The position numbers and the translations under genes were made by a program. Below are positions 1-17,097 of a stretch of DNA of 64,000 nucleotides, one piece after another. This stretch comes from an uncultured Hyphomicrobiales bacterium (GTDB lineage: Bacteria; Pseudomonadota; Alphaproteobacteria; Rhizobiales; Xanthobacteraceae), in contig CAZNSG010000329.1 in assembly GCA_964575715.1 (NCBI GenBank), forward strand, positions 13,054-77,053. The letters are read 5' to 3'. Position 1 is the first letter of the stretch. Every line of letters starts with the position of its first letter. A model generated the notes under the pieces. The model was not told where the DNA came from, did not search any database, and was given only the letters and a program-made list of their open reading frames with translations.

Positions 1-222
1 GTTTGCCCCCTTGCTGGACGAGTCCGCTCTCGATCCCCATGCGACCGCATTTGCATGGGCGCCTGATGGGCGCCTGCATGACTTGGGATCGTCATGCCGG
101 CTCAGGCTGCACTCGATCATCGCGACGGTGGCCAGGTCCCGCGGGGGGTAGGCCTGGAACGAATGCATCGGTAGATAATCTGATGGACAGCTAAGGAGGA
201 AATATCAGTTGCACATTGGCGC

Positions 223-239
223 GATAGCCGATCGCTATC
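223..239. promoter_or_regulatory. Dyad GATAGC-N5-GCTATC (ATAG-N7-CTAT, T-N11-A type), copy 1, upstream of the DUF302 gene
   Basis: Read directly: gatagc-cgatc-gctatc. It lies 158 nt upstream of ATG 397. Confidence 0.5.
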
Positions 240-396
240 GCCGCGCTTGGCGTGACGATTTCGTTATTCATTGCCTTCGATACGCGTCAGCTATTGATAT
301 GAAAGTCCGCGTGTGATTTCGAATTCGCCATTCCTGATGCATTCTGAAGTCGAAACTTGCGCAATGACGCGCAAGTCAACGCAGAGGAATGGATTC

Positions 397-879
397 ATGT
401 TCACCAAAGCAAAATTCTTGCGCTTTCCCGCCGCCGCGGTGATTGCGCTCACGCTGGCATTTGCGGGTGACGCAAGCGCTTCGTCCAAGGACGGTATCGT
501 CCGCGTCAAGAGCGCCTACAACTTCACCGATACGGTCGCTCGCCTGAAAGCTGACATCGCCGCAAAGGGCATCATGTTCTTCAGTGAGATTGATCAGTCA
601 AAGTTGGCGGCCGATGCGGGCATCAAGTTGCAGCCATCGACACTGCTGGTGTTTGGCAATCCGCCGCTTGGGACGCAATTCATCACGGCGAATGCAAATT
701 CCGGCTTGGACTGGCCCGTGCGGTTGCTGGTTACCGAGGATGATTCGGGTACGGTGAGAACAATCTATACCGATTTCAATTGGATTGCCGTCCGTCATGG
801 AATCAAGAATCGGAAGGCGCAATTCAAGAAAGCATCCGAGGTCATCGCGTCCATCACGTCGAGCGTGAAGACGAAATGA
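397..879 (+). CDS. Exported DUF302-domain protein
   Basis: ORF 313..879. ATG 397 is preceded by AGAGGA. Signal peptide MFTKAKFLRFPAAAVIALTLAFAGDASA. DUF302-like core (LLVFGNP..G....DWPVRLLV). Confidence 0.75.
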   Translation: MFTKAKFLRFPAAAVIALTLAFAGDASASSKDGIVRVKSAYNFTDTVARLKADIAAKGIMFFSEIDQSKLAADAGIKLQPSTLLVFGNPPLGTQFITANANSGLDWPVRLLVTEDDSGTVRTIYTDFNWIAVRHGIKNRKAQFKKASEVIASITSSVKTK

Positions 880-962
880 GCGGCCGTTCGCGGTGCCGGC
901 TCCGAGCCGATGGGCCATGGTCCCGTCATTTGGAGCCGGCGCCTGCGGACTTCGAACAAGAA

Positions 963-979
963 CATAGCGCAGCGCTATC
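963..979. promoter_or_regulatory. Dyad CATAGC-N5-GCTATC, copy 2, upstream of the cupin gene
   Basis: Read directly: catagc-gcagc-gctatc. It lies 99 nt upstream of ATG 1078. Confidence 0.45.
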
Positions 980-1077
980 GAGTCGAGAGCAACCAGGTAT
1001 TTCCTTCAAAAACACGCGTGGTCCATGATCGCAATTACTGCGGCGGCCAGAAGTGAAGCTGCAGCGAAACAGAGGAG

Positions 1078-1569
1078 ATGAAAATGTTCAATCGCAAGAT
1101 CAACAGTGGCTGGCTTCGTACAATCGCCGCCGTCGCTTTCGTCGCGTCCACCGGATTCGCACTCAACGCTCAGGCCGGTGAATGCCCCGTAGACAAAAGG
1201 AAGGTCGATGCCCGGCAACCCGTGAGCCTGCCTGCCAATGGCGTGACCGATACGACGCTGGGATCAATCGATCTCGGCAAGGAAATGGCAAAGATCACGG
1301 GTCGCGAATTGCGCTTCCGGAAACTGGTCATCAAACCGGGCGGCGTTGTGCCATGGCACAGCCACGACGATCGTCCTGCGCTCATCTTCGTTGCGCGGGG
1401 CACGATCCTGGAATATGCCAGCAATTGCGCGGCGCCGATTGTCCACAAAGCCGGCGAGGTCAGCACAGAGACCCTCGGAACGTCGCACTGGTGGAAGAAC
1501 CTTGGAAACAAGACGGTCGTATTGTACGTCGCCGACGTTCGCCGCGACCCGAATGACAAACATATGTGA
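1078..1569 (+). CDS. Exported cupin-domain protein
   Basis: 163-aa ORF with an N-terminal signal peptide. Cupin motif PWHSHDDRPALIFVARGT...HWWKN. The start could be the second ATG at 1084. Confidence 0.7.
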   Translation: MKMFNRKINSGWLRTIAAVAFVASTGFALNAQAGECPVDKRKVDARQPVSLPANGVTDTTLGSIDLGKEMAKITGRELRFRKLVIKPGGVVPWHSHDDRPALIFVARGTILEYASNCAAPIVHKAGEVSTETLGTSHWWKNLGNKTVVLYVADVRRDPNDKHM

Positions 1570-1768
1570 CGGTTGCTGTCCGCCCCTCCCCCAGCCCGTC
1601 GCATCGTGACGCCCCGTATCCCCCCATACGGGGCGTCCCCCTTTGGCAATGGCCGTTATATTTTTTGCTCCTGCAAAGCCCAGCCTTGCTGCACTCAAAG
1701 GGCTATAATTAATAACATTATCAATGTCTTATTGATCGTCACCGCCGCATTCACTAAAAGTCGCATAT

Positions 1769-1785
1769 CATAGACCATCGCTATC
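1769..1785. promoter_or_regulatory. Degenerate dyad CATAGA-N5-GCTATC, copy 3, upstream of peroxiredoxin-like gene 1
   Basis: Read directly: cataga-ccatc-gctatc. It lies 83 nt upstream of ATG 1868. Confidence 0.35.
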
Positions 1786-1867
1786 ATCCCAGCGCATATA
1801 TTAGAGGCGGTATCGATTTTTCGTTGTGATTCATCATACGGAGTTCCGGAGAAAGGGCCGATCGCAT

Positions 1868-2569
1868 ATGACTTCCCATATTGTGGCTGCCGACATACGT
1901 CAGGCCTTCGAACAGGTCCGCGATATGGATGCATCCATGGGCGAGCGTCTCAAGGCCTTTGCCGATGCTATCCGTAATCTGCATCCGAGCGCGGCGGCGA
2001 TCGCCGATCGCATAGTCAATCGCCTTAAGGAGCACGGTGCCGGCGATGCCGCTCCGAAGGTCGGCGATTTAATGCCACCGTTCATTCTGCCTGATGAATC
2101 AGGTCGATTGGTCAGTCTGCAAGAGATGCTGGCCAATGGACCGGTGATTGCGACGTTTCACCGGGGGCATTGGTGCCCATATTGCCGCATCAGCATCAAT
2201 GCCTTGGCCGAAGCACAGGAGAAAATCAAGAATCTCGGCGCACATATGGTAGCAATTATTCCGGAGCGCGGTCAATTTGCCGCCGAAATGAAACTCGACT
2301 CCAATGTAAGGTTTCCCATCCTGACCGACATGGATAATGGCTATGCGCTCATGCTGAATCTTACTTTTTGGGTCGGTACCGAGGTGCAGCAATTTATGAC
2401 CTCGCTCGGGCGAGATCTGCCTGAATATCAGGGCAATGAAAGCTGGATGCTCCCGATACCGGCAACATTCGTTGTCGGCAAGGACGGGCGCATTAAAGCT
2501 CGTTTTGTCGATCCCGATTATCGCAAGCGTATGGCGATTGAAGAGTTGATCGGCTGTCTGAAACAATAA
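1868..2569 (+). CDS. AhpC/TSA-family (peroxiredoxin-like) thiol oxidoreductase with a WCPYC motif, paralog 1
   Basis: ORF 1826..2569, using internal ATG 1868. Motifs PPFILPDESGRLVSL, FHRGHWCPYC, PATFVVGKDG. No signal peptide. Confidence 0.75.
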   Translation: MTSHIVAADIRQAFEQVRDMDASMGERLKAFADAIRNLHPSAAAIADRIVNRLKEHGAGDAAPKVGDLMPPFILPDESGRLVSLQEMLANGPVIATFHRGHWCPYCRISINALAEAQEKIKNLGAHMVAIIPERGQFAAEMKLDSNVRFPILTDMDNGYALMLNLTFWVGTEVQQFMTSLGRDLPEYQGNESWMLPIPATFVVGKDGRIKARFVDPDYRKRMAIEELIGCLKQ

Positions 2570-2596
2570 GTATTCCGTCGGCGGTCGCATTGACTC

Positions 2597-3484
2597 CTAT
2601 GCGGACTTGCGAGACCAGTTTGCCGCGCGCAGCAGTTTCATTAATGTCGATGCCACGGTCGTCCGCTGCCGGCCGGCGACGCCGTACAGATAGACCGTTC
2701 GATGCAAGTCCGCGCCCTTGACGGGCGCGCGTACTATACTTTGCGGGCAGGTAATGCTCCTTGGAAGGAACCCGATTCCTATATTGGCTTCCAACAGCGC
2801 AATCAAATCCTGGTCCGACGACACTTCATGACTGTGATCTGCGTTAAGACCATTATTACGCAGGATCAGCATGAGCTCAGCGTAATTTTCCCAGTGACTC
2901 CCCATAAGAAATCGCTCGAGCTTGAGATCCTCAAAATGAATGCCCTCTTGGTTGGCTAGCCGATGCACCCGGTTAAATGCCACATCGAAAGAATCGTCGA
3001 AAAGTTTCCAACGATCGAGACGATCCCAGGTATCGCCGATCGAGGCAGCAATAGCGAGTTCAGCATCGCCGGACTTAAGATACTCGACAATTTGCGGTCC
3101 AGTGCCTCGTAGAATTTTCAACTCGATGTCGCTGAGATTTTTCTTGAGTTCGCTCACTTGAGACAAGATCTGGCCAAGCTCAATAGTATTCGATACCGCG
3201 ATTTTGAGCGCACCAACTTCGCCCTTATTGACCAATGTCGCAAGCGATCGCGCACTCACGGCACTCTCGTAACATTGCTTCAGATGTGGAAAAATTTGTT
3301 CTCCGAGCGGAGTCAGCATGGCGCGCGGCCGCTCACGGCGAAACAAATCGCCACCGAGTTCGCCCTCAAGCAGCTTGATGGCGCGCGTCAGCGATGGCTG
3401 TGCGACATTGCATTCCTCGGCAGCCCGGGTGAAATTCAACGTCTGGGCGACGGCCAAGAAATATCGGACTTGATGCATTTCCAT
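2597..3484 (-). CDS. LysR-family transcriptional regulator
   Basis: 295 aa. N-terminal HTH MEMHQVRYFLAVAQTLNFTRAAEECNVAQPSLTRAIKLLE, followed by a LysR substrate-binding region. Confidence 0.9.
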   Translation of the reverse strand: MEMHQVRYFLAVAQTLNFTRAAEECNVAQPSLTRAIKLLEGELGGDLFRRERPRAMLTPLGEQIFPHLKQCYESAVSARSLATLVNKGEVGALKIAVSNTIELGQILSQVSELKKNLSDIELKILRGTGPQIVEYLKSGDAELAIAASIGDTWDRLDRWKLFDDSFDVAFNRVHRLANQEGIHFEDLKLERFLMGSHWENYAELMLILRNNGLNADHSHEVSSDQDLIALLEANIGIGFLPRSITCPQSIVRAPVKGADLHRTVYLYGVAGRQRTTVASTLMKLLRAANWSRKSA

Positions 3485-3510
3485 TCGCCGGCCCCCGCCC
3501 CCAGTGAGCC

Positions 3511-4833
3511 TTAACTCGCCCTTGAACGCAACTCTGGCTTCTCATGCATACGCATACTGTCCAGATGCGGCGTAGACAATCCCGTGATGAGCCGGCTGCC
3601 GCGTTGAAACGTAACATAACTCCAGACCCAGTTCAGGGCGACAACAAATCGATTCCTAAAACCGATCAGGAAGTAGATATGGGCCAAGCTCCAGAGCAAC
3701 CAGGCCGAAAATCCCGAAAGGCGGAGCCGGCCAAACTGAGCAATGGCGCGTTTGCGCCCAATCGTGGCCAAAGTACCAAAATCGCGATAGCGAAATGCAT
3801 GGATGGGCAGGCCACGAGTGCGCGCAATCAGCAGACGGGCAACATAATTCCCTTGCTGTTTAGCGACGGGAGCAACGCCCGGCAACGTGGCTCCGTCGCC
3901 GGTCGAAACGGAAGCCGTATCGCCGATCACAAACACATGGGGGTGGCGGGGTACCGACAAATCAGGATTGACCTTGACCCGGCCGGCGCGGTCGGTTTCC
4001 GCGCCAAGCCAGCGCCCCGCCGGCGAGGCCATCACGCCCGCGGCCCAGATGATCGTCCGGCTCGGAATGAACTCGCCGGCAACGCGGACACCTTCGCAGC
4101 TGCATTCACTGACGGCGGTGCCAAGCCGAACTTCGACACCGAGCATCTCAAGCGAGCGCCGTGCTGACTCTGACAATGATGGATCAAACGGTGTCAAAAC
4201 TCGCGGCGCGGCTTCGACCAAAATAATCTTGGCACAGCGTGGATCGATGGAGCGAAAATCGGAAGCAAGCGCGCGACTGGCCAATTCCGCGATTGCGCCA
4301 GCCATTTCAACTCCAGTCGGACCGCCGCCGACGATGACAAAGGTCAACAACCGGCGCCGCTCAACTGCATCATCCTCGGTCTCGGCTTTTTCAAAGGCGA
4401 GCAGGATTCGGCGACGCAAGTAGGTGGCGTCGTCAAGCGTCTTCAAGCCGGGCGCATAGGTCGCCCAATCGTCGCGACCAAAATAGGCATGCCGGACTCC
4501 GGTCGCGATGATCAGGTAATCGTACGAAATCCGTCGTTCATCCGCGAGCACTTGTCTTCGCTTTAAATCGACTCCGGTCACATCGGCGAGAATAACCTTG
4601 ACGTTCTCCTGGCCACGCAAGATGGCTCGGATTGGCGAAGCAATATCGGCCGGCGATAGGCCTGCGGTTGCCACTTGATAAAGCAGCGGCTGGAACAGGT
4701 GATGATTGTTGCGGTCGATCAGCGTGATTTCGAATGGCTGCCCGGCTAGCCGCTTAGCCGCCGATAGACCGCCAAATCCTCCTCCAACGATCACTACATG
4801 AGGTTTGGAATGAGATTGCTGTGCGCTGTTCAT
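3511..4833 (-). CDS. ndh: Type II NADH dehydrogenase (NDH-2), FAD-dependent
   Basis: 440 aa. VVIVGGGFGGLSAA dinucleotide fold, LFQPLLYQVATAGL, a second GGGPTGVE fold, and a C-terminal membrane-anchor-like segment. The start overlaps the upstream stop as ATGA at 4830-4833. Confidence 0.85.
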   Translation of the reverse strand: MNSAQQSHSKPHVVIVGGGFGGLSAAKRLAGQPFEITLIDRNNHHLFQPLLYQVATAGLSPADIASPIRAILRGQENVKVILADVTGVDLKRRQVLADERRISYDYLIIATGVRHAYFGRDDWATYAPGLKTLDDATYLRRRILLAFEKAETEDDAVERRRLLTFVIVGGGPTGVEMAGAIAELASRALASDFRSIDPRCAKIILVEAAPRVLTPFDPSLSESARRSLEMLGVEVRLGTAVSECSCEGVRVAGEFIPSRTIIWAAGVMASPAGRWLGAETDRAGRVKVNPDLSVPRHPHVFVIGDTASVSTGDGATLPGVAPVAKQQGNYVARLLIARTRGLPIHAFRYRDFGTLATIGRKRAIAQFGRLRLSGFSAWLLWSLAHIYFLIGFRNRFVVALNWVWSYVTFQRGSRLITGLSTPHLDSMRMHEKPELRSRAS

Positions 4834-5651
4834 GGTTTTGAACCGGTTTGTGCGGCGACCGCAGGCCTATTGGACCAGCCGAAACCAATGACAATTTCAG
4901 ATGAGATGAGCGTCGTAAGACTGGCTGCAAGGTCGAAGTTAGCCGCTGTTGCCACGGCGCATTCGATGGCAGATGCGACCGTCCTGCCCTGGGAAAGCGC
5001 GTTCAGGAACTCATAATCTCCATCGGACAGCCGCCAGACCACAACTTGCAGATAGGGTCGCGCGATAAGGGCCGACTCCGGTGCCCATTTTTGAATGTCG
5101 TTGGTGTCCCCGTAGTAGTTGGATTCCCAGATGCTAACGAAGGGGAAGCGTGAATTGAGCAACACCACAGATGGATGAAGATTTATCGTCAGCTCCGCGA
5201 GTTGATCTGGGGACAGTGAAGCGAACGCGCTCTTGCCGATCGGCTTTGCATCGGCGGCGTGATAGGCGCGCACGCGGGCTGCCTCCAACTCCGCGATCGT
5301 GGCGAGATATTCCGCCGCAGCGCCGTGCCCGACACTGCGAATGAATTGCGGGAAACTTTTGCCATACTCAAGCAGGATCGGCGATTTCGGGGGCTCTGCC
5401 GTTACATAGAGGCGCACAACCCCGTGAAACGAGTCATCGCCCAGGAGTTTGCGCACAACGGGATATTTTGCCGTGACGGCATTCATCAGCCCCCCGATGA
5501 CGTTATTCCGATAGACGCCGAAGCGGCTTGCGGTTGTCGAGAGCGAGCGGGATTTGAGAAATGCAGAAATTGGCGAGACATCGGAAAAAATCGCGTGCGA
5601 AAACAATCGCTGAATGTCTGCAAGACCAAGCGTGTCCTGAAAGGCATTCAT
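4830..5651 (-). CDS. DUF2063-family protein (BufC-like partner of an MNIO enzyme)
   Basis: ORF 4830..5852. ATG 5651 lies 5 nt after the DUF692 stop. Its position directly downstream of a DUF692 gene is the canonical pairing. Confidence 0.7.
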   Translation of the reverse strand: MNAFQDTLGLADIQRLFSHAIFSDVSPISAFLKSRSLSTTASRFGVYRNNVIGGLMNAVTAKYPVVRKLLGDDSFHGVVRLYVTAEPPKSPILLEYGKSFPQFIRSVGHGAAAEYLATIAELEAARVRAYHAADAKPIGKSAFASLSPDQLAELTINLHPSVVLLNSRFPFVSIWESNYYGDTNDIQKWAPESALIARPYLQVVVWRLSDGDYEFLNALSQGRTVASAIECAVATAANFDLAASLTTLISSEIVIGFGWSNRPAVAAQTGSKP

Positions 5652-5655
5652 GACG

Positions 5656-6567
5656 TTACGCCGCAGCCATTTCTTCGCCGCTTTCGGCATTCGCCAAAAG
5701 AAGCGAGCGAGCGCGTGCCGCCTCGGACGCCAGCACTGCAAATGGCGGGACGTTATTGTCCCACTCGACGAGCGTTGGCGCGAGGTATTGATACGCCAAT
5801 ACCCGACGGTAGAGATCCCAGACTGAACCGCTGATTGGCTTTCCGTGATCATCGATCAGCAGGCGCGCCCCGGAACTGTCGCGGTCCTCGGCAAAGCCAG
5901 CAAGATGAAATTCACCGACAAATTCGATGGGAAAGGCATCGATGTAAGCGGCGGCATCGAAGCCATGATTGACAGCGGAAATAAAAACATTGTTGACGTC
6001 GAGCAGCAATCCGCAGCCGGTCCTGCGCGCAACCGCGCGCAGAAATTCGGTTTCATCCATCGTGTTTGCTTTGAATGTTGTGTAGGTCGATGGATTCTCG
6101 AGCAGCATGCGCATTCCGATGGAGTTCTGCACTTCATCGACATGAGCGCAGATATGCGCCAAGGTTATTTCGTTGTAGGGCAAGGGCAAAAGATCGTTGA
6201 GAAAGGTGCCCTCATGCGTTGACCATGCCAGATGTTCCGAAAACAGTGCTGGCCGATATACGTCGATAAGTCCCTTCAACCGACGTAGATGATCGCGATC
6301 AAGCGGCGCGATGCCGCCAATTGACAAGCCGACGCCGTGAATTGAAATCGGATAATCGGCCCTGATACGGCGGAGCAGATGATGTGGGGGGCCGCCGGCG
6401 CCCATGTAATTCTCCGCATGAATCTCAAAGAAATCGACGCGCGAATGAGCACTAAATATCTCTTCGGCATGCTCGTGTTTGAGCCCGGTTCCGACCGACA
6501 TTGCGCCAAGTCTTGGTGCGTCCCGTCCTGGCGCTCCGGCTTTTGTCGATTTTGATTGCGCTCGCAT
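5656..6567 (-). CDS. DUF692 / multinuclear non-heme iron oxidative enzyme (MNIO; MbnB/BufB-like)
   Basis: 303 aa. TIM-barrel UPF0276-like motifs: GLKHEH, VDFFEIHAENYMG, ISIHGVGLSIG, FSEHLAW, LLLDVNNVF, EFHLAG. Confidence 0.8.
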   Translation of the reverse strand: MRAQSKSTKAGAPGRDAPRLGAMSVGTGLKHEHAEEIFSAHSRVDFFEIHAENYMGAGGPPHHLLRRIRADYPISIHGVGLSIGGIAPLDRDHLRRLKGLIDVYRPALFSEHLAWSTHEGTFLNDLLPLPYNEITLAHICAHVDEVQNSIGMRMLLENPSTYTTFKANTMDETEFLRAVARRTGCGLLLDVNNVFISAVNHGFDAAAYIDAFPIEFVGEFHLAGFAEDRDSSGARLLIDDHGKPISGSVWDLYRRVLAYQYLAPTLVEWDNNVPPFAVLASEAARARSLLLANAESGEEMAAA

Positions 6568-6663
6568 AACTCACCAGCGGTCGATATTGCGGTGCGGGCA
6601 GGGGGAGAAACTGGCGCACATTTTGCGCCGGCTCTCATCGGGATCTATGGACCTTCCGCGCGA

Positions 6664-6954
6664 TCAGGGACGTGCGATCTCCTTGAGGGAGCCGACGCCG
6701 AAGGGAGTCTGCGTGGTCATGCAAGTTCCCTTGTTGACGAGCTTCCAGGCGTTGCCCTGGTAGTCCACTGTCGCGGTCGCGGCACAGGTCGTACCTGCGC
6801 CGGCGGCGCAATCATTTTCACCCTTCAGAGAGATGCCGTAGCATTTCTCCTTGGACGCTGCTTCTGCCGTCGACAATGTGCCGGCCGCTGCAAGCGCCGA
6901 ACCCAGGGCTGCCGCGATCGCCAACGATAATGCAGGATTGAGTCTGTTCGACAT
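6664..6954 (-). CDS. DUF2282-type secreted precursor peptide (bufferin BufA1-like), 4 Cys
   Basis: 96 aa. AAGGAG lies 7 nt upstream of the ATG. Sec signal peptide ends ...STAEA. Core [43 protein letters not shown] matches the DUF2282 Cys pattern. Confidence 0.75.
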
Positions 6955-7051
6955 TTGACTTCTCCTTAATACCCTAGATCGCTTCCCATGAGCGTCGCCG
7001 TATTGTGACGCGCTTCGCTACGATTATGAAATATCATCCGGCAATTGATGC

Positions 7052-7068
7052 GATAGCGTTTAGCTATC
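7052..7068. promoter_or_regulatory. Dyad GATAGC-N5-GCTATC, copy 4, upstream of the precursor gene
   Basis: Read directly: gatagc-gttta-gctatc. It lies 98 nt upstream of ATG 6954 on the minus strand. Confidence 0.5.
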
Positions 7069-7071
7069 CAT

Positions 7072-7281
7072 TTACCGAAGAACCGATTGCCCGTTGATGG
7101 CATGTGCCGATTGCCGCGATGCCTTGATGACGGACTGATCGGCGGTCAGCTTGCTGCCATTACGAAGAGAATCGATCCGTGCGTTGATGCCCGCGATCAT
7201 GACGACGATCCCGGCAATCAAAGAAACTGCTACAATTCGGATATGCGTGTAGCGATCTGCGCCTCGCATTGAATGGTTCAT
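7072..7281 (-). CDS. Small single-pass membrane protein, hypothetical
   Basis: Internal ATG of ORF 7072..7518 with an AAGAGGA RBS. One hydrophobic helix IRIVAVSLIAGIVVMIAGI. I recognise no family. Confidence 0.4.
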   Translation of the reverse strand: MNHSMRGADRYTHIRIVAVSLIAGIVVMIAGINARIDSLRNGSKLTADQSVIKASRQSAHAINGQSVLR

Positions 7282-7514
7282 GGCAACTATCCTCTTAAAG
7301 TCGGAGCAGGCCGAGGTTCGTGGCAAAAATTTAAAATCATCAGGCTCAATTGTATAATGCCGTCTGGCTATTGAACCGATAGAGCGCGGAAATGGTCTGG
7401 TTCGGTGGTCACAGAAAGCCCGTATCGCATTCATGATTTGCCAATGCCGGAGGTATTTTAGACCTTCTCGCACCACGACAATTTGGCACCAAAGAGGGCT
7501 GGATTCGAAAACTT

Positions 7515-8234
7515 TCAACGGCGTTTTTGCAGCTTTTTGAGCCCCGCGATGATTGCCTCGGGCTCCATGCGCTCGCGAAACTCGACGTTGAGCTGCCGCG
7601 CTTTCACCATTCCATCCTGGTCGACAATGAACTTTGCGGCAATTGGAAGAAAATAACTTTGATTGCCGTGGTAGTGCTCCAATTCAATCCCAACATCATC
7701 GTAAAGTCGCTTGATTTCAGCGCCAACCCAATGGACCAATCCAAGCGAAAGCGAATAACCCAGATCGATGTCGCTCAGGATCGGGAATGGAAGATCGTTA
7801 AGTTCAACGGAACTTTTGGTGAATTGCGCATTGTCCGGCATGATAGAGACAATCTGCGCGCCCAGCTTCTCGATTTGTGGATGTATCGCGGCGAGCGAGC
7901 GAAGTTCCAATTTGCAGTACGGGCACCAGTGCCCGCGATTGAAGCTGACGACGACCGGTCCGGATTTCAGCAGTGAATTTAACGATACCAGGCTGCTTTT
8001 CTCATCGGGCAAAAGAAATGGCGGCAATTGCTCGCCGATTTTCGGTCCGATTTCGCCGCGATCAAGCACGCCGAGACGGGTTATCAGCTGTTCGTAAGGC
8101 TTGACGAATTGGGGTCGCAGCCGACTGCTCTGCTCGCGATAGGCTGACAATCGGAGATTGAGCGAATCAAATTGGTTTCCGTTTCGCGTAAATACGTCGG
8201 CCGATGTTTCCGAAGGGGTATCAGGTTTGCTCAT
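7515..8234 (-). CDS. AhpC/TSA-family (peroxiredoxin-like) thiol oxidoreductase with a WCPYC motif, paralog 2
   Basis: ORF 7515..8285, using ATG 8234. PPFLLPDEKSSLVSL, FNRGHWCPYC, AAKFIVDQDG. Collinear with the 1868..2569 protein. Confidence 0.75.
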   Translation of the reverse strand: MSKPDTPSETSADVFTRNGNQFDSLNLRLSAYREQSSRLRPQFVKPYEQLITRLGVLDRGEIGPKIGEQLPPFLLPDEKSSLVSLNSLLKSGPVVVSFNRGHWCPYCKLELRSLAAIHPQIEKLGAQIVSIMPDNAQFTKSSVELNDLPFPILSDIDLGYSLSLGLVHWVGAEIKRLYDDVGIELEHYHGNQSYFLPIAAKFIVDQDGMVKARQLNVEFRERMEPEAIIAGLKKLQKRR

Positions 8235-8299
8235 GTACGCCTCGTGCGTGCGACCAGCAGATAGCGTTGCTGCGAAAAACAGCAAGTATCACGACGGCG

Positions 8300-8316
8300 G
8301 ATAGCAAGGGGCTATC
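8300..8316. promoter_or_regulatory. Dyad GATAGC-N5-GCTATC, copy 5, in the divergent spacer between peroxiredoxin-like gene 2 and the 663-aa membrane protein gene
   Basis: Read directly: gatagc-aaggg-gctatc. It lies 66 nt upstream of ATG 8234 (minus strand) and 211 nt upstream of ATG 8527 (plus strand). Confidence 0.5.
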
Positions 8317-8526
8317 AATTCGATTTGGGTATCTGGCGCACTTGGATTTGACTAACGCTTTGTTGACGGCAGGCGCAAAGAACCAGAATTAACCCTGTAC
8401 GGCTTGCCTTGCAGAAGGCACCGTGTCTCACAGGTCCCAAGTGTGCAAATGCGCGTAAGACATCCTGCGGCACGGCAAGCTATATCCGTTGAGATGAATT
8501 TATAATGAGCCTGGGGTCTGGATTCG

Positions 8527-10518
8527 ATGGCATCGGCTGCTAATGCTGCTTTATGCGCGATAGTGGCGACAGCGTTTTGGACGTTGTTGGGCTATGCCAT
8601 CGGCCGCCATATTTTCCCGCGTATTCTTGCAATCGGCACGGCAGCCATCATTGGCTGGGCGGTCTACAACTCAGTCACACTGCCGATCTTTGGTCTATTC
8701 GGCTTCTCTCCGGTCACAGTAGCGAGCGCTATCGCGCTCTGCGTGATCGGAAGTTGCACTTCGATATTTGCGCTATCGGGGAAAAGCGATACCGAACCCG
8801 CGCCGGCCATAGCCATGTGGGTTTATCTTGCTGCCGCTGTTCTTGCGCTGGTGCCAGCCGCGGCCATCTTGCCGAAGATCGCCGCGGACTCGGTGCAGCT
8901 TGCAAGTCCGATATTCGATCATTCCAAGGTGGCGATGATCGATGCCATGGCGCGGCTTGGCTTACCTCCAGTAAATCCCTTCTTTGGCGAAGACGGCACG
9001 CCGGGCCGCCTCGCCTATTACTATCTCTGGTATTTCAGCGCCGCTCAGCTTTCGCTCGTGCTCGGCGTGAGTGGATGGGAAGCTGATATCGGACTGACAT
9101 GGTTCTCCGCCTACGCGTCATTGACATTGATGATGGGCCTTGCGGTATGGCTTAGCAAACGCTCCGCCGCCGCGATCTGGGTGGTGCTTCTCGCCGGTGC
9201 GACGTCGCTTCGCGCGACGCTCATAACCATTTTTGGCACCAACAATCTCGAGCCGTTTCTTTTGTCTTCGACAGGCTTTGCTGGCTGGATGTTTCAAGCG
9301 ACGTGGGTGCCCCAGCATCTCACATCGGCATCGTGTGTCGTGGTTGCGATGCTCCTGCTGAGCCAATACGCGGTTCAGCAGAACATCGTGCTGCTCGCGG
9401 TACTGATCCTGGTGGTTGCCGCCGGATTTGAAAGTTCGACCTATGTCGGCGGCATCACTTTTTCCGTCGCCGCACTGATCGCCGTGCCAATTCTGCTTTT
9501 CAGCATTGACAAAGTCTTCCGGCTCCGTTTTGCGATTGGATTGTTGACCGCAGCCGTGCTCGCGGCGGGTCTTGCTGCTCCATTTTTGTTCGATCAGATC
9601 GCAACTGTCGGCGCACGCGGCGCAGGCGCGCCGATCGTGATTGATCATTTTGCCGTCCTTGGAGAAATGTTTACGCCGTTTCTTCGCCGTCTCCTGGATC
9701 TGCTCGCCTATTGGCTCATTCTAATGCCAATCGAGTTTCCGGCCACCTATTGCGCCGGCGCTCTTGCGCTAGTGGTCATGTTACGAGCTTTTGCGGCATT
9801 GCCGGAAAAATTCGCAACAGCTGCGTTCGCGTCACTTACGGTGGCGGGATTGGCCGTTTCATGGCTGCTTGTCAGCACACTCGGTGGAAACAACGATCTC
9901 GCCCTGCGCGCCGTCATAGCGCCTGCCATGATTCTGATCGCGAGCGCGGCGGCGGGGATGGTGCTCCGACCCCGACGTGCTGTGATAATCGCGGCCGCGC
10001 TTGGCGGTCTGCTCCTGAGCCTGCCGGATGCCGTGCGCATGATTCATTACAACTTCGCCGGCGATGCGACCCCGGCCGGCCAAGCGTTTGCACAATCGCC
10101 GCAGATGTGGGCTGCCGTGCGCCAGCATGCAACACCAAACGCCCGGGTCGGCAACAACCCGCTATTCTTGCAGGACATGACGCCTTGGCCGGTCAATATT
10201 TCCTGGGCTTTGCTGGCCAATCGCAGCTCGTGCTTTGCCGGCCTTGAGCTGACTCTCGCCTACGCGCCGCTTACCCGCGAACGCCGCGAGACGATCAACG
10301 CGCAGTTTATTCGCGTGTTCGAAGGCCAAAGCACAGCAGAAGATATTTCGGATTTGGCGAGCAAATACGGCTGTGAAGTTGTTGCCCTCACAGTGCATGA
10401 CAAGGCTTGGGATGCAGACCCGTTTGCTTCAAGCGCAAACTATCGCCTGGCCGAGGCCAAGGAAGGCCAGTGGAGGATCTATACACAAGTGCCCGCGACC
10501 GCTCCGGCAGTTCGGTAA
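8527..10518 (+). CDS. Large polytopic membrane protein with a C-terminal soluble domain (GT-C-like architecture, family unrecognised)
   Basis: 663-aa ORF. More than 12 hydrophobic segments are followed by about 140 hydrophilic residues. Confidence 0.65.
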   Translation: MASAANAALCAIVATAFWTLLGYAIGRHIFPRILAIGTAAIIGWAVYNSVTLPIFGLFGFSPVTVASAIALCVIGSCTSIFALSGKSDTEPAPAIAMWVYLAAAVLALVPAAAILPKIAADSVQLASPIFDHSKVAMIDAMARLGLPPVNPFFGEDGTPGRLAYYYLWYFSAAQLSLVLGVSGWEADIGLTWFSAYASLTLMMGLAVWLSKRSAAAIWVVLLAGATSLRATLITIFGTNNLEPFLLSSTGFAGWMFQATWVPQHLTSASCVVVAMLLLSQYAVQQNIVLLAVLILVVAAGFESSTYVGGITFSVAALIAVPILLFSIDKVFRLRFAIGLLTAAVLAAGLAAPFLFDQIATVGARGAGAPIVIDHFAVLGEMFTPFLRRLLDLLAYWLILMPIEFPATYCAGALALVVMLRAFAALPEKFATAAFASLTVAGLAVSWLLVSTLGGNNDLALRAVIAPAMILIASAAAGMVLRPRRAVIIAAALGGLLLSLPDAVRMIHYNFAGDATPAGQAFAQSPQMWAAVRQHATPNARVGNNPLFLQDMTPWPVNISWALLANRSSCFAGLELTLAYAPLTRERRETINAQFIRVFEGQSTAEDISDLASKYGCEVVALTVHDKAWDADPFASSANYRLAEAKEGQWRIYTQVPATAPAVR

Positions 10519-10543
10519 TCGGCCCTGCAAGTTTAGCGCGACA

Positions 10544-11335
10544 TCAAATCCCAGCGAACCAGTTGAAACCCTGCTTGTGCCAAAACGTGTCAGGAAAGCT
10601 GTTCGTCACTTCGATCGCGGTGATCCATTTCGCATTTTTGAATCCGAGTTTCGTTGATGTGCGCAGGCGCAGCGGATACCCGAACGGATCGGCAATAATT
10701 TCCTTGGCATACTTGGTCGCCAATATCGTCTGCGGATGGAGCGCGGTCGCCATGTCGATGCTTTCGGTATAGTCGTCCGCGCATATGAACGCGATATATT
10801 TGGCGGTCAAATCAGCGCCAATGCGCTCCAGAAAGCTCCGCAGATTCGGTCCCGACCACTGCCCGATGTAATCCCATCCTTCCACGCAAATGTGGCGGAT
10901 GATCAGCTCTTGCTCGGGAAGCTCGTAAATCTGCCGTGCGGTCCAGGGCCGCTTGTCCGCGATGCGGCCGGACAATTCCAATTTCCAGCTCGCGCCGTCC
11001 ACCGGCTTTACATCCTCGATATCGTAGTAGGCATTGAAACGCGGTGGCTTGACGACCTGGGTTTCCGAATATGTCTGCGCGAGATGATTGGGCCTGAATA
11101 TGGCGGCCTGCACGCCGTCGTTCCACGCCGAAACGGCGCGCAGCACGGCCTGCACGGCATTTGAGTCCGAGACGTCGCAGCCCGTGAGCATCGTGAGACC
11201 ACCGAGACTCAGCGCGCCACGCAGTAGATTGCGGCGATCAATTTTCTCGATTAGCGCGCGGTTTTCCCGGAGCACGCTTTGATCGATTGGCTTTGCAGGT
11301 CGAAAGATCGATGGCGAGGGGGTTTTGATTGGCAT
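10544..11335 (-). CDS. Molybdopterin-dependent oxidoreductase (sulfite oxidase / MsrP-like fold) with a Tat signal
   Basis: 263 aa. Twin-arginine DRRNLLRGALSLGGLTMLTGC. Motifs HICVEGW and RLRTSTKLGFKNAKWI. Confidence 0.8.
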   Translation of the reverse strand: MPIKTPSPSIFRPAKPIDQSVLRENRALIEKIDRRNLLRGALSLGGLTMLTGCDVSDSNAVQAVLRAVSAWNDGVQAAIFRPNHLAQTYSETQVVKPPRFNAYYDIEDVKPVDGASWKLELSGRIADKRPWTARQIYELPEQELIIRHICVEGWDYIGQWSGPNLRSFLERIGADLTAKYIAFICADDYTESIDMATALHPQTILATKYAKEIIADPFGYPLRLRTSTKLGFKNAKWITAIEVTNSFPDTFWHKQGFNWFAGI

Positions 11336-11347
11336 CGTCGATACCGT

Positions 11348-12028
11348 CTAGTTGGTTAGTTTGGCTTCGATTGACGCTTTGTCGGCAGACGTCGACTGAT
11401 TGTCTGTTTTAGGTCCGCCAGTCAGCATGGCGAGCAGCGATTGCGGCACCAGCAACGCCAACGCCACGTGCACGGCCAGAAACAGCACAATGGCCGCCAT
11501 GCACAGAAAATGCACCAGTCGTGCGGTCTGGAAGTCGTAGAACAAAGTCGCCAACTCAGAGAACTGGACCGGCTTCCAGAGTACCAGGCCGGACATTACT
11601 GTTAGGATCCCCACCAGCATGATGCCGAGATAGAGAATCTTTTGAACGGCGTTGTAACGCGACAGATCGTCATGCTTGAGGCGAAATCGTAGGGCGTCGC
11701 CGACGGTTGCGAGCAACTCGCGCATTGTGACCGGGAAGAGCTTTTGCCGGAAGCGACCGGATACAATTCCGTAGATCAAATAGAACAATCCATTGAACGT
11801 GAAAATCCACATTCCAAGGAAATGCCACTGCAGTCCGTGCTGGGCCCACTTTCCGAGGGTGAGGAATTCGGGAAAATGCAGCCAGCCGAAGATCACTTCG
11901 TCATTGTAGATCTTCCACCCGCTTGTGATCATAATCAGCACCGCAAGTGTATTGATCCAATGCATGATGCGCACTGGCAGCGGGTGAAGGCGTTCGCGAG
12001 CATCCGATTTGACTTCAACATCCGCCAT
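11348..12028 (-). CDS. Cytochrome b (b561 / Ni-Fe hydrogenase b-type family) membrane subunit
   Basis: 226 aa. RIMHWINTLAVLIMITSGW followed by further TM helices with His residues. Sits 12 nt upstream of the Mo-oxidoreductase gene. Confidence 0.75.
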   Translation of the reverse strand: MADVEVKSDARERLHPLPVRIMHWINTLAVLIMITSGWKIYNDEVIFGWLHFPEFLTLGKWAQHGLQWHFLGMWIFTFNGLFYLIYGIVSGRFRQKLFPVTMRELLATVGDALRFRLKHDDLSRYNAVQKILYLGIMLVGILTVMSGLVLWKPVQFSELATLFYDFQTARLVHFLCMAAIVLFLAVHVALALLVPQSLLAMLTGGPKTDNQSTSADKASIEAKLTN

Positions 12029-12181
12029 ATAGAATACTCCGCAGTTGTTGGAAGCCTTCAGTGCAAATTACATCGCTTGCGTTGCGTTTTTGAAGCCTGC
12101 AAAATACCTTTGCCAGAACGCCTTCGCAAGAAGGACGCGCTACACATCTTCGTGTAAGAATCTTCGTCTGGGAGACTAGGG

Positions 12182-12664
12182 ATGTTCTTCAAAATCATCG
12201 CAATTATATACGCCGCCACTCTCATTGCGTCCGCACCGGTCGCGGCGAATTTTGATTCGCTGGTTGTCTTGGCGGCGAGCGTCGAAACGCCGAAGGGTAC
12301 TTCTTCGGATAACGTGCTCACACCGGAAGAGAAAATGCGCCGGCGCTTTCCGCAGCCGGCGCTGGTTGGCGACCTCATCGGTCTGCGCCTGCTCGACGAT
12401 GATGATATTACCATCGGCCGCGTCCGCCAGGTGGTGCGCACGCCGGAAGGCAAAATCAAGCTGATCATCTCCTATGGCGGTTGGTTTGGCTGGGGGGCGC
12501 GACCGGTTGCCGTGCCCATTGAAGCGGTCGCAATCTTGGGGCGTCAGATAGCCGCACTCGATATGCCGCAGAGCGAATTCGCGACCGCGCCGACGTGGAC
12601 CGGCACCGGTGCACAGGTCTTGCCGAATGGTGAAATCATTCAAATTGCGCTCGGAAGACGCTGA
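12182..12664 (+). CDS. Exported PRC-barrel domain protein
   Basis: 160 aa. Signal peptide, then a PRC-barrel-like segment GDLIGLRLLDDDDITIGRVRQVV...VAVPIEAV. Confidence 0.6.
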   Translation: MFFKIIAIIYAATLIASAPVAANFDSLVVLAASVETPKGTSSDNVLTPEEKMRRRFPQPALVGDLIGLRLLDDDDITIGRVRQVVRTPEGKIKLIISYGGWFGWGARPVAVPIEAVAILGRQIAALDMPQSEFATAPTWTGTGAQVLPNGEIIQIALGRR

Positions 12665-12820
12665 TTCCGAGTTGCAGCGGTCACAAGTAATTGAAGAGGT
12701 AACTTTATTGTGTCGGCGAGCGAATTTGGGGGTCAGGAACGGTTCATGTGAGTTTGTGTACGGTCGCTCAAGCTGCACTTTTGACTGCATCATATATGAT
12801 TGTACCATTCGGAGTACAGC

Positions 12821-13660
12821 ATGCGTGGACCCAACGGATTAACAGTTAAACGTAAGTCTGTCAGTGCTTGGGCAGGGCAGAATTATTTTTCTTTATCGGA
12901 GACTCAACGCTGTGGCATTGCGATCATGGCGAAGGCTTCAACGCCAGGGCGCACCAAGACGCGGTTGGCGCCGCCACTGAATTTTGAAGAAGCCGCAGAA
13001 TTCAATACTGCATTTCTGCAAGACATCACGGAGAACGTGCTGCTTGCCGGGCATCAGGTTAGCCTCGCCGGCTATGTGGCATTCGGTCCGCCAGGGTCCG
13101 AGGAGTTTTTTCGCCGCACGCTGCCGGCCGCGATCGGACTCATCGACGCGTCGTTTCCGTATTTCGGTGACTGTCTGATCTTCACGATCGATGAAATTCT
13201 TCGGCGCGGTCATGACTCGGCCGTTGTGCTCAACTCCGACAGCCCTACGTTGCCAACGTCGCTCCTTGTCGAAACTGCGGAGATACTCGCGCGGCCCGGC
13301 GATCGCGCGGTGCTCGGTCCCTGCAGCGACGGCGGATATTATTTGTTGGGCTTAAAGCGAACTCACCATCGCCTGTTCGAAGATATCGCCTGGAGCACAG
13401 AAAAAGTCGCGAAACAGACCTTGGCACGTGCCCGGGAAATCAATCTTGATGTTCACGTGCTGCCGGTTTGGTACGATGTCGATGACTTCGAGGGTCTGAG
13501 AACACTCCACGGCGAACTTCCCAGGATAAATTCTTCCAAGGTTCGGCTCGTCCCTTATCATGCCGCCAAGACGGCCGCACTGATGGAGCGGCTTTGGCGG
13601 GATGCCGATTTCGTGCGCCGTGTCGGCCGGCTCCTGCAACTTGAAAAACTCGGTGCTTGA
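12821..13660 (+). CDS. DUF2064 / TIGR04282-like nucleotidyl- or glycosyl-transferase-fold protein
   Basis: ORF 12800..13660 (TTG at 12800, ATG at 12821). Signatures IAIMAKASTPGRTKTRL, VLNSDSPTLP, GPCSDGGYYLLGLK. Confidence 0.7.
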   Translation: MRGPNGLTVKRKSVSAWAGQNYFSLSETQRCGIAIMAKASTPGRTKTRLAPPLNFEEAAEFNTAFLQDITENVLLAGHQVSLAGYVAFGPPGSEEFFRRTLPAAIGLIDASFPYFGDCLIFTIDEILRRGHDSAVVLNSDSPTLPTSLLVETAEILARPGDRAVLGPCSDGGYYLLGLKRTHHRLFEDIAWSTEKVAKQTLARAREINLDVHVLPVWYDVDDFEGLRTLHGELPRINSSKVRLVPYHAAKTAALMERLWRDADFVRRVGRLLQLEKLGA

Positions 13661-13704
13661 TACTGCTGTATTTTCCATGCGATCAGTACAACGGATGAAA
13701 TGCC

Positions 13705-14769
13705 ATGGATGGAACTGCCTCTGACCGCATGATCGATCCTCAGCGCTACTTCGAAAGTGTGCAGACGCGCGGTGAGGTTCCGGCGCAGGAACCCGTCTGC
13801 CTTTATCTGGAGACGACCAATCGCTGCAATCTGTTGTGCACGACCTGCCCGCGAACCTATGAGGAGCTGGAGCCCCCGGCGGATATGAGCTGGGAGCTGT
13901 TCACATCGATCGTCGATCAGATTCCGAAACTCCAGCGGGCGGTGCTGCACGGCGTCGGTGAACCGATGCTGGTGAAGAATCTGCCGCGCATGGTGCGATA
14001 TCTCAAGGATCGCGGCACTTACGTCCTGTTCAACACCAACGGCACGGTTCTTAACGAGCGTAACGGCCGTGCCTTGATCCAAGCCGGATTGGACGAGCTG
14101 CGCGTTTCGTTCGACGCCTCGAATCCCAAATCCTATCTCGCAGTTCGCGGCAAGAATTATTTCAACCGAATCCTGAAGAATGTCCGCGCCTTCCGCGCGC
14201 TGCAGGAACGCGAAGGCCATGCCAAGCCGCGCGTGTCGGCCTGGCTGACGGGCTTGCGCGAAACCATCGAAGAACTGCCGGACTTTGTGCGCGTGGCCGC
14301 CGAGATCGGGGTGAAGGAGGTTTACCTGCAACGGCTGGTATTTTTCAATGATCATGCGATCGGAAAGGCGCGACCGGATCAAGCGTTATATGAGCAGCTA
14401 TCGCGCGACGAGGCGATTTATATCGACCGGGCCACCGCGCTCGCCAAGTCCCTGGGCATTAAGTTCAGCGCATCGGGCGGCGCCTCCGAACCCGGCATGA
14501 GTCTCAAACGCAGCGATAATGGATCGCCCTGGTCGCTATGCCGCCGGCCCTGGACGGTCATGTATTTTACCGCCAATGGGCGCGCGCTTCCCTGTTGTAT
14601 CGCGCCATTCTCACAACGGGGCTATGAAAATTACACACTGGGCGATGCGACCCAACAAACGTTGCGCGAGATCTGGATCGGTCCGGCTTACGGCGATTTT
14701 CGCAAAGCATTATTGTCGAACAAACCACAGGCGGCCTGTGCAAGCTGCGGTCTGCGGTGGAGCCTATGA
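13705..14769 (+). CDS. Radical SAM enzyme with a C-terminal SPASM/twitch Cys cluster
   Basis: 354 aa. CNLLCTTCPR (CxxxCxxC), GEPML. C-terminus C..PW......NG...PCCIAP ... ACASCG. Confidence 0.85.
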   Translation: MDGTASDRMIDPQRYFESVQTRGEVPAQEPVCLYLETTNRCNLLCTTCPRTYEELEPPADMSWELFTSIVDQIPKLQRAVLHGVGEPMLVKNLPRMVRYLKDRGTYVLFNTNGTVLNERNGRALIQAGLDELRVSFDASNPKSYLAVRGKNYFNRILKNVRAFRALQEREGHAKPRVSAWLTGLRETIEELPDFVRVAAEIGVKEVYLQRLVFFNDHAIGKARPDQALYEQLSRDEAIYIDRATALAKSLGIKFSASGGASEPGMSLKRSDNGSPWSLCRRPWTVMYFTANGRALPCCIAPFSQRGYENYTLGDATQQTLREIWIGPAYGDFRKALLSNKPQAACASCGLRWSL

Positions 14770-15509
14770 AGATGACCACGGTTGCCGTGAAGTTAGCGCA
14801 ACCGGCAATGCGTGTTGCGGTCGTCATACCGACTTTAAACGAAGCGGAATCTATCGGATCTGTCGTCGCTTCGCTTCCCCGCAGTGTCGTCGACCGCGTT
14901 ATCGTGGCGGATGGCGGCAGCGAGGACAGCACTGTGGATCGAGCCAGTCGCGCCGACGCCCAGGTTATCGCCGCCGGTAGAGGATATGGCCGCGCATGTC
15001 TTGCGGGCGCGCTCGCCGCCGAAAGCGCGGACATCATTGTTTTCATGGACGGTGACGGCGCTGACGATCCTGGCGCCATCGCGGACATGGTCGCACCAAT
15101 CCGTTCCGGTGATTACGACTTCACCATTGGCTCGCGTGCGCGGGGCAAGCGAGAACCAGGCAGCATGGCCTATCACCAGATTCTCGCCGGCTTGTTCGCC
15201 GGCTGGCTGATATGGCTGCTCTATGGCGTGCGCTTTACCGACATGTGCGCGCTGCGCGCCATCCGCCGCGATACGCTGCTCGCACTTGGCATGCGGGAAC
15301 TCACTTATGGCTGGAATCTCGAAATGCAGATGCGGGTCGCCCGCGCAGGGTTTCGCGTGTTGGAAGTGCCGGTCCCGTATCGGCGCCGCGTCGGCGGTGA
15401 ATCAAAAGTAGCCGGCAGTCTGCGAGGGACAATCGTTGCGGGGTTTCGGATCATGACGACATTCATGCGCATTGCATTCGAGCCCGCGCACAAACGCAGC
15501 TTAGGCTAA
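14766..15509 (+). CDS. Glycosyltransferase family 2 (polyprenol-phosphate-sugar synthase-like)
   Basis: ATG 14766 overlaps the rSAM TGA as ATGA (a GTG at 14757 is also possible). VVIPTLNEAESI, ADGGSEDST, FMDGDGADD. Confidence 0.8.
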   Translation: MKMTTVAVKLAQPAMRVAVVIPTLNEAESIGSVVASLPRSVVDRVIVADGGSEDSTVDRASRADAQVIAAGRGYGRACLAGALAAESADIIVFMDGDGADDPGAIADMVAPIRSGDYDFTIGSRARGKREPGSMAYHQILAGLFAGWLIWLLYGVRFTDMCALRAIRRDTLLALGMRELTYGWNLEMQMRVARAGFRVLEVPVPYRRRVGGESKVAGSLRGTIVAGFRIMTTFMRIAFEPAHKRSLG

Positions 15510-15615
15510 TGTCGGATTAAGTAGCATTGGATCAGACCGTAGCGCCATTCGTCATCTGCGCGAGTGGGTGCGGCGATCGAAGCCATTCGTGCCGCATATT
15601 ACTTATTACTTGCGC

Positions 15616-16176
15616 TCAACGCGATATTCGTGAAATTTTCGAGCCCTCCAAGGTCAAGTTATACATCAGCCCTTTTTCGTCGAGGATGAACCCGATCACG
15701 GGCTTGGTAATCTGGTTGGTGTCGAGCGAGCCGCCAGCGCCAAGCGTGACCAGCGCGACCGATCCGTCGACGCCGACTTTCCAGCCGTCCTTGCGCCTGA
15801 AGCTGGCAAGGGAATCCTCGGTCATGAACATGATAACGACCGAGCGTGCTTGCACGCCGAGCTGAAAGCCGACGGATGCCGAAATCGAATTGTAATAGCC
15901 GGCAGTCTTGCCTTTAATCCGCAATGCGCCCTCGCCGTACTCGCCGCCAATTCCAATCCCCGCCTTGACGATGGATGGGAATACCAAGACCCCTGCCGCC
16001 CGGTTGGCGAGATCACGCGCGCCGTTCACTTTCAAGTAGAGTCGTTTAAGCGTTGCGTTGACGTCGACTTCGATCTCGGCAGCGGACGCTGTTTCGCCGC
16101 GTTGCGCCGTTGATGCGATCGCAAGCGCGGATACGATGAGCAGACATATTGCTCGACGTGCAAATATCATGGACAT
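15616..16176 (-). CDS. Exported SYLF (YSC84-like, DUF500) lipid-binding domain protein
   Basis: 186 aa. Signal peptide. Core GVLVFPSIVKAGIGIGGEYGEGAL...GFQLGVQ...GVDGSVA. Confidence 0.7.
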   Translation of the reverse strand: MSMIFARRAICLLIVSALAIASTAQRGETASAAEIEVDVNATLKRLYLKVNGARDLANRAAGVLVFPSIVKAGIGIGGEYGEGALRIKGKTAGYYNSISASVGFQLGVQARSVVIMFMTEDSLASFRRKDGWKVGVDGSVALVTLGAGGSLDTNQITKPVIGFILDEKGLMYNLTLEGSKISRISR

Positions 16177-16974: not shown

Positions 16975-16996
16975 TGCTTTATTCCTGGTGTTTGAA

Positions 16997-17091: not shown

Positions 17092-17097
17092 ATAGAG

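Follow-up and report, generated by a model that had tools for sequence, protein, structure and literature searches.

A 64,000-nucleotide stretch of DNA from an uncultured Hyphomicrobiales bacterium of the family Xanthobacteraceae (contig CAZNSG010000329.1 of assembly GCA_964575715.1, positions 13,054 to 77,053 of the forward strand; hereafter, the window) carries bufA, bufB and bufC, the genes of a bufferin cluster. In all likelihood this is a functional cluster of the Buf1 type that runs on into two further genes, ndh and lysR, and stands under an operator of the OxyR type, with the product of the adjacent lysR, an OxyR-like member of the LysR family, as its candidate driver. The three buf genes are consecutive and co-directional open reading frames (ORFs) of the minus strand, as read from the ORF list and the sequence: bufA (6664-6954) encodes a Buf1-type bufferin precursor, bufB (5656-6567) a multinuclear non-heme iron oxidase (MNIO; formerly DUF692) as the predicted bufferin maturase, and bufC (4830-5651) a DUF2063 partner of the MNIO enzyme. 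An earlier note on this DNA had proposed a bufferin-like operon of just these three ORFs, and the proposal is upheld, in that the family assignments, the precursor type and the gene order all agree. In searches with hidden Markov models (HMMs) for DUF2282, DUF692 and DUF2063, all three proteins exceed the curated Pfam or NCBIfam cut-offs, and nearly all of 160 loci fetched from public genomes and metagenomes show the order bufA-bufB-bufC again. With scores so far past their thresholds and an order that recurs in this way, a chance origin of the three-gene match is excluded, and, judged by its sequence, the cluster is an intact Buf1-type bufferin gene cluster belonging to a known and very large family. 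As a bufferin cluster it is nothing new, the family having been described in 2024 and having thousands of members; Buf1 clusters are already known in thousands (PMC12452194).

Loci for comparison came from two samples, one of 80 GTDB loci fetched through an alignment of BufA and one of 80 metagenome loci fetched through an alignment of BufC. Scans of genome and metagenome contigs with the single BufC query had returned no matches, and alignment queries were needed. Individual loci are referred to below by number (L001 being the longer contig to which the window belongs), and the term close clade is used for loci whose BufC is at least 50% identical to that of the window.

The precursor BufA is 96 residues long, inside the 80-120-residue range of four-Cys Buf1 precursors, and scores 80.4 bits against PF10048 (DUF2282/BufA1; cut-off 22.4) over residues 35-88. 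In a protein search, 5,617 relatives were recovered at E ≤ 1e-5. The claim that its cysteines are arranged as in DUF2282 proved correct, with the EKCYG, NDCA, TCA and KGTC motifs all present. These cysteines, CysI-IV (C38, C49, C57 and C78), are invariant across 24 aligned homologues of 68-79% identity, and their spacing of 11, 8 and 21 residues is that of Cys12, Cys23, Cys31 and Cys52 in Buf1 of Caulobacter vibrioides, where a disulfide joins the outer pair and the inner pair is converted to copper-binding 5-thiooxazoles (PMC11626156). A putative Sec leader comprises residues 1-32, in which Arg4 precedes a stretch of hydrophobic character (residues 8-25; Kyte-Doolittle score of about 2) and a cleavage site between AEA and AS, the corresponding site in the 24-homologue alignment being AQA followed by A, G or S. 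Cleavage there would leave a core of 64 residues (ASKEKC...IARP), for which an unmodified monoisotopic mass of 6582.18 Da was computed. The gene is preceded by a strong ribosome site, AAGGAG, 7 nt before its ATG. The BufA2 model falls below its cut-off on this protein (20.7 versus 60), and EGKCG repeats of the oxazolin type were not found in it; because of these two results and the sub-threshold score of the HvfB model on the enzyme (see below), the precursor is assigned to the Buf1 (DUF2282) type.

The enzyme BufB (303 residues) scores 376.8 bits against the NF050167 MNIO_BufB equivalog model, for which the cut-off is 310, and 346.9 bits against PF05114 (MbnB_TglH_ChrH). The sister MNIO models are all sub-threshold on it (HvfB, 236 against a cut-off of 360; ApyH, 90 against 400; MbnB, 66.7 against 325; ChrH, 32 against 600). 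It aligns both to 3BWW, a DUF692 protein of solved structure (E 6e-50), and to MbnB, and comparison with the published list of MbnB iron ligands (PMC9060507) reveals that eight of the nine are kept: H77, H112, E157, D190, N193, H221, D239 and H241 of BufB match H54, H90, E133, D163, N166, H192, D208 and H210 of MbnB. The ninth, E239 of MbnB, lies outside the alignment; E268 of BufB pairs with a Glu of 3BWW. Public gene callers chose an alternative start for bufB, at 6501 (281 residues). The 96-nt gap between bufA and bufB given in the earlier note therefore holds for the longest ORF and would become 162 nt with this start.

The DUF2063 gene does adjoin the DUF692 stop, as had been noted, with four bases between the bufB TAA (5656-5658) and the bufC ATG at 5651. 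An upstream ATG giving 286 residues was taken by the gene callers; homologues align from 5651, which gives a BufC of 273 residues with a score of 76.5 bits against PF09836 (DUF2063; cut-off 27.2) over residues 13-104 and a longer tail than the BufC of relatives. No sequence-level match for BufC was found in the PDB. Its AlphaFold model (predicted local distance difference test score, pLDDT, of 72) has as its top three PDB neighbors TglI (8hci_A and 8hi7_A) and NGO1945 (3dee), the prototype of DUF2063, at probabilities of about 1.0 but weak E-values of 0.01-0.05 and, for 3dee, a template modeling (TM) score of 0.60 on the target. MbnC and the recognition element (RRE) of a lasso-peptide system rank lower among these matches.

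The evidence on regulation begins with the DNA upstream of bufA. Alignment of this region from six loci revealed an invariant palindrome, ATAGC-N5-GCTAT, about 90-100 nt before the ATG, and then a conserved ...GATATTT element. Allowing at most one mismatch, the palindrome occurs five times in the 64 kb, against 0.77 expected, and none of 100 shuffles reached five. All five boxes are intergenic, lie in promoter regions and fall inside the first 8.3 kb, and beyond them ATAG-N7-CTAT was found nowhere else in the window. The box of bufA (7053-7067, minus strand) is 98 nt before the ATG and is accompanied by a degenerate second site 22 nt downstream (7031-7045). The same palindrome stands at 8301-8315 (minus strand) upstream of ahpC_up (7515-8285, minus strand; likely start 8234), which encodes a peroxiredoxin-like protein of the AhpC/TSA type with a WCPYC motif (PF00578, 72.7 bits), and, with one mismatch, at 1770-1784 (plus strand) upstream of a second peroxiredoxin-like gene (1826-2569, plus strand; likely start 1868), the product of which is 41% identical to the first. 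The remaining two boxes are at 964-978 (plus strand), 100 nt upstream of a cupin gene (1078-1569, plus strand; Cupin_2) and with a degenerate second site at 986-1000, and at 224-238 (plus strand; same palindrome), upstream of a DUF302 gene (313-879, plus strand; likely start 397); both genes are predicted regulon members. The two peroxiredoxin-like paralogues have in common, besides the WCPYC motif and the operator in front, an N-terminal extension of about 80 residues each.

Taken over 46 sites, the consensus reads ATAG-N7-CTAT, then 7 nt, then a degenerate AT(C/T)G-N7-(A/G)TAT, and the boxes match the operator published for OxyR, ATAG-N7-CTAT-N7-ATAG-N7-CTAT (PMC5720770). The exact palindrome occurs 30 times in the 1.9 Mb of fetched loci, always in the contig of the window, in close-clade loci or in two Pseudolabrys ndh loci (L004 and L005). 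The bufA box is kept in L003, L087-L090 and further relatives; relatives carry boxes before doxX and ndh too, and the doxX gene on the contig of the window also has a box of its own. The distance from box to start is specific to each gene and conserved in relatives, being 88-114 nt for bufA, 96-102 nt for the cupin gene, 84-139 nt for doxX, 67-69 nt for ndh (loci without buf genes included) and 100-163 nt for lysR where ndh is absent. No box precedes ndh or lysR in the window; both genes probably rely on read-through from the bufA promoter.

Two further features of the bufA leader region deserve mention. A short inverted repeat, ACGCTC...GAGCG (6980-6995, minus strand), lies between the operator box and the ribosome site and is kept in six loci, with Ts after it in relatives and no covariation across the six; it may act as a hairpin in the RNA or as a site for a protein. 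Known RNAs of Rfam were absent from 1-13 kb. An ORF between ahpC_up and bufA (7072-7281, minus strand; 69 residues with one predicted membrane helix) was considered as an extra component of the system and rejected because it is not conserved, a counterpart being present only in L003 (43% identity) and there being no room for one in L087-L090. No family match was found for it.

Downstream of bufC, the start of ndh (3511-4833, minus strand; 440 residues) overlaps the bufC stop (ATGA at 4830-4833), and lysR (2597-3484, minus strand) begins 26 nt past ndh on the same strand; the transcription unit probably extends past bufC into both. The product of ndh is a type II NADH dehydrogenase (NDH-2; Pyr_redox_2, 173.7 bits; NDH2_C, 33.4 bits) with homologues of 75-81% identity, and that of lysR has the HTH_1 and LysR_substrate domains of its family and is the candidate box binder. 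In this operon ndh, rather than doxX, is the fourth gene; doxX lies about 5 kb beyond the start of the window, on the opposite strand of the longer contig. Its absence from the operon does not exclude membership of the family, since many accepted bufferin clusters lack it, including C. vibrioides buf2 and 19 of the 80 GTDB loci, where bufABC has no doxX match; about 47 of the 80 have bufA-bufB-bufC-doxX on one strand and 10 have a divergent arrangement of the Erythrobacter type. No gene for an extracytoplasmic function (ECF) sigma factor or for NrsF was found among the family-scanned genes, from about 6.7 kb on one side to 11 kb on the other.

Comparison of loci clarifies how this layout may have arisen. 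The order bufABC-ndh is common to L003, L087, L090 and L093, lysR directly follows bufC without ndh in L088, L089 and L091, and the most constant gene downstream of the cluster is lysR. Three loci (L011, L092 and L097) have the arrangement cupin(-)-bufABC-doxX(-), and in more distant members of the clade (L011 and L094-L100) doxX is convergent with bufC, so that the layout of the window looks as if bufC and doxX had been separated by an insertion of the ndh, lysR, ahpC-like, cupin and DUF302 genes. In the published survey of MNIO neighborhoods, LysR and Pyr_redox_2 domains are recorded in 11% of cases in the supplement and neither is mentioned in the main text (PMC12452194). Two further loci retain traces of the cluster directly upstream of ndh: L002 keeps only bufC (7036-7839), and L006 a frameshifted fragment of it (about 7300-7870). 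As bufA and bufB are gone from both, some lineages have seen the bufferin cluster decay.

The LysR-family protein has orthologues of 69-74% identity in which residues 1-62, the DNA-binding part, are nearly invariant, and this near-invariance of the helix-turn-helix (HTH) fits the invariance of the operator. Four of five orthologues carry C198-E-K-C201 (as SHCEKC or NHCEKC), L091 keeping only C198; this first cysteine aligns with the GHC-motif Cys in OxyR of Corynebacterium glutamicum, and C71 is invariant. By HMM, the protein of the window is not an OxyR orthologue (77.8 bits against the equivalog cut-off of 329 for PRK11151), and the name given to it here goes no further than an OxyR-like LysR regulator.

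By analogy with C. vibrioides, we infer a pathway in which BufA would be made as the 96-residue precursor, and in the cytoplasm BufB, an iron enzyme, would act jointly with BufC, its partner, to oxidize C49 and C57 to 5-thiooxazole heterocycles. The product would then be exported by Sec, with signal peptidase cutting after A32, and the outer cysteines, C38 and C78, would form a disulfide. The resulting 64-residue periplasmic product would bind Cu(I) or Cu(II) via its heterocycles and so buffer excess copper. The adjacent OxyR-like LysR protein may drive the bufferin operon as the operator-binding component of a small regulon, the signal presumably being oxidative, thiol or metal stress.

The position of ndh invites the alternative that NDH-2 replaces DoxX as a bufferin component, either as a redox partner linked to quinone or by reducing Cu(II) to supply the peptide with Cu(I), which would make this a distinct functional variant. 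The overlap of ndh with bufC in an operon without doxX can be read in this way, as can the bufC-ndh adjacency in the four loci named above, the bufC remnants beside ndh in L002 and L006, the Pyr_redox_2 domains in MNIO neighborhoods and the reported Cu(II)-reducing activity of Escherichia coli NDH-2, which is unspecific and quinol-mediated (PMC7558416). However, in L088, L089 and L091 the block is otherwise the same with no ndh between bufC and lysR, and the ATGA overlap is found only in the window, the gap between bufC and ndh in relatives being 110-200 nt, often with a separate ndh box. An orthologue of 76% identity stands alone, with the same box, in Pseudolabrys contigs lacking bufABC, and among the 80 GTDB loci an NDH-2 orthologue lies within 9 kb of the cluster only in L011, which is of the same clade, the match upstream of bufA in L041 being unrelated at 25% identity. 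Furthermore, doxX is still to be found at a distance of about 5 kb and has a box to itself, and C. vibrioides can do without DoxX for both modification and copper protection. Since ndh is optional in close relatives and its overlap with bufC is confined to the window, bufferin maturation is unlikely to require it, and the gene order indicates that NDH-2 is a neighbor easily gained and lost rather than a required part of the pathway. A replacement of DoxX by NDH-2 was therefore rejected as the principal interpretation, ndh being optional in close relatives, having its own operator elsewhere and being present with that operator in genomes without buf genes, and we regard it as improbable.

A more serious competitor, though still an unlikely one, is that the gene order is simply inherited, the boxes being bound by canonical OxyR or another distant regulator and the adjacent LysR protein controlling something else. 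Several observations that weigh against control by the adjacent LysR belong here. In place of the two cysteines of its orthologues the protein of the window reads SHWENY at residues 196-201, with W198 and Y201 replacing both, and it thus lacks the GHC and resolving cysteines by which OxyR senses; the protein may not be redox-sensing, or binding of the boxes may not fall to it. Among solved proteins its best relative is ItcR, an itaconate sensor, and its score on the OxyR model is, as noted, far from that cut-off. Boxes occur in L004-L006, L099, L100 and L104, where the fetched stretch does not include this LysR gene, so that a regulator encoded elsewhere, such as canonical OxyR, could bind them; in L004 and L005 the box is 68 nt upstream of ndh, with neither buf genes nor an adjacent LysR. 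On the other hand, this LysR is the only regulator conserved in the block, directly after bufC or ndh in every close-clade locus that is long enough to show it, and its HTH is almost invariant, as is the operator. Where ndh is absent (L088 and L089), lysR has its own box, which is the pattern expected for autoregulation. Three other points temper the interpretation as a functional, extended operon: ndh is absent in three of the eight close-clade loci showing what follows bufC; nothing convincing as a sigma-70 promoter or terminator emerged from the consensus scans, which were at or below chance (3 promoter-like sites versus 3.9 expected and 6 terminator-like sites versus 7.2); and the AlphaFold model of BufA is uninformative (mean pLDDT of 44), the two strands that it puts at 62-65 and 70-74, in a core expected to hold a two-stranded beta sheet and a short helix, being unreliable accordingly. 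It might even be argued that the locus, with its genes intact, is silent or decaying and that the DUF2282 protein is exported unmodified. The remnants in L002 and L006, the loss of two candidate sensor cysteines from the regulator and the stand-alone, possibly unmodified, DUF2282 genes noted previously (PMC12452194) are in keeping with such a state, but all three ORFs are full length, the eight aligned iron ligands and all four precursor cysteines are conserved, and the ribosome site is strong and the operator intact. We consider decay of this kind very improbable, and a functional Buf1-type operon driven by its neighboring LysR protein remains the reading we favor.

A broader proposition follows from the distribution of the boxes, on which we are evenly divided. 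It holds that a clade of soil Alphaproteobacteria, the nearest named relatives of which are Pseudolabrys and Pseudorhodoplanes, has placed its bufferin operon in a compact, conserved regulon under the OxyR-like LysR protein, together with two CxxC peroxiredoxin-like proteins, NDH-2, DoxX, a cupin and a DUF302 protein. Were this so, bufferins would be used against oxidative or thiol stress, or against copper that is sensed through thiols, and not only via the metal pathway of the ECF sigma factor SigF. DoxX, an unexplained "core" bufferin gene, would then count as a stress protein under the same control, not as a partner in biosynthesis; the operator that it shares with the peptide, the peroxiredoxin-like proteins and NDH-2 could help to explain why doxX travels with bufferin genes though it is unneeded for modification. 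The proposition provides a testable model for the control of bufferin expression in bacteria without SigF and NrsF, in which the operator is defined at 37 bp and the candidate regulator is named. The predicted control by an OxyR-like LysR protein, in a regulon that includes doxX and ndh, goes beyond the literature searched; LysR is not mentioned in the main text of the bufferin papers among it.

The wider surroundings of the cluster differ in composition from the rest of the window. The earlier note had described the block as more A/T-rich than the sequence further in, which is borne out by a GC content of 55.1% over 1-8400, 57.0% over 8401-16300 and 61.8% over the rest. The low-GC stretch runs to about 16 kb, and the GC content of third codon positions (GC3), at first about 0.58-0.70, climbs to about 0.80 where the genes for a histidine phosphatase and dapB lie (16351-17907). 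The accompanying suggestion of accessory DNA fared less well, as there is little beyond the dip itself to indicate an island: no tRNA gene is present at the boundary of the low-GC block, no integrase or transposase was matched among the genes scanned against Pfam and NCBIfam, and synteny of the block extends to related metagenomic contigs, its GC content there being 0-3.6 points from that of the flanks. Within this region, a 663-residue protein with many hydrophobic segments is encoded at 8527-10518 (plus strand) and has no Pfam or NCBIfam match. At 10544-12028 (minus strand) lies the gene for a molybdopterin oxidoreductase, MsrP-like at a sub-threshold score, adjoining a cytochrome b561 gene; pairs of this kind are mentioned near some oxazolin clusters in the MNIO survey (PMC12452194), and no operator box was found upstream. 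What appears to be a separate small cluster occupies 12800-15509 (plus strand), where a TIGR04282 "arsenosugar biosynthesis glycosyltransferase" (score 137.6, cut-off 134) comes first and has a radical SAM/SPASM protein and a glycosyltransferase of family 2 after it.

Among characterized systems, the closest counterpart considered is buf1ABCD of C. vibrioides (CCNA_03363-03366; PMC11626156), which has in common with the cluster of the window a DUF2282 precursor with a Sec leader (predicted here), the 11/8/21 cysteine spacing, an Asp before CysII and an Ala after CysIII, an MNIO that passes the cut-off of the BufB equivalog, a DUF2063 partner and the order A-B-C. The two differ in that the window has NDH-2 and LysR genes where a co-directional doxX is the fourth gene in C. 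vibrioides, in that the predicted core has 64 residues rather than 68 and an Ala rather than a Lys after CysII, and in their control, which depends on the ECF sigma factor SigF in C. vibrioides and would be exerted through a LysR/OxyR-type operator here. The canonical bufABC-doxX clusters, such as the "gig" operons of Cupriavidus and Legionella (PMC12452194), likewise have the same three core families, whereas in the window doxX is retained about 5 kb off, on the opposite strand and with its own operator. In HvfABC of Haemophilus influenzae and in MbnABC, too, an MNIO and its partner act on precursor cysteines to create copper-binding groups, and the iron ligands are common to MbnB; the precursor of the window, however, has neither EGKCG repeats nor the leader/core arrangement of MbnA, and its BufC is sub-threshold on the HvfC model (45.8 versus 142).

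The likeness to OxyR is of a different sort. It extends to the operator sequence, the 22-nt periodicity, the peroxiredoxin-type targets and a regulator of the LysR family whose binding is predicted, and the orthologues of this regulator have a Cys at the position of the sensing Cys. In contrast to OxyR, the second Cys of the orthologues comes 3 residues after the first and not 9, the copy in the window has neither, and the predicted set of targets includes an operon for a peptide made on ribosomes and modified after translation (RiPP) alongside NDH-2, DoxX, a cupin and a DUF302 protein.

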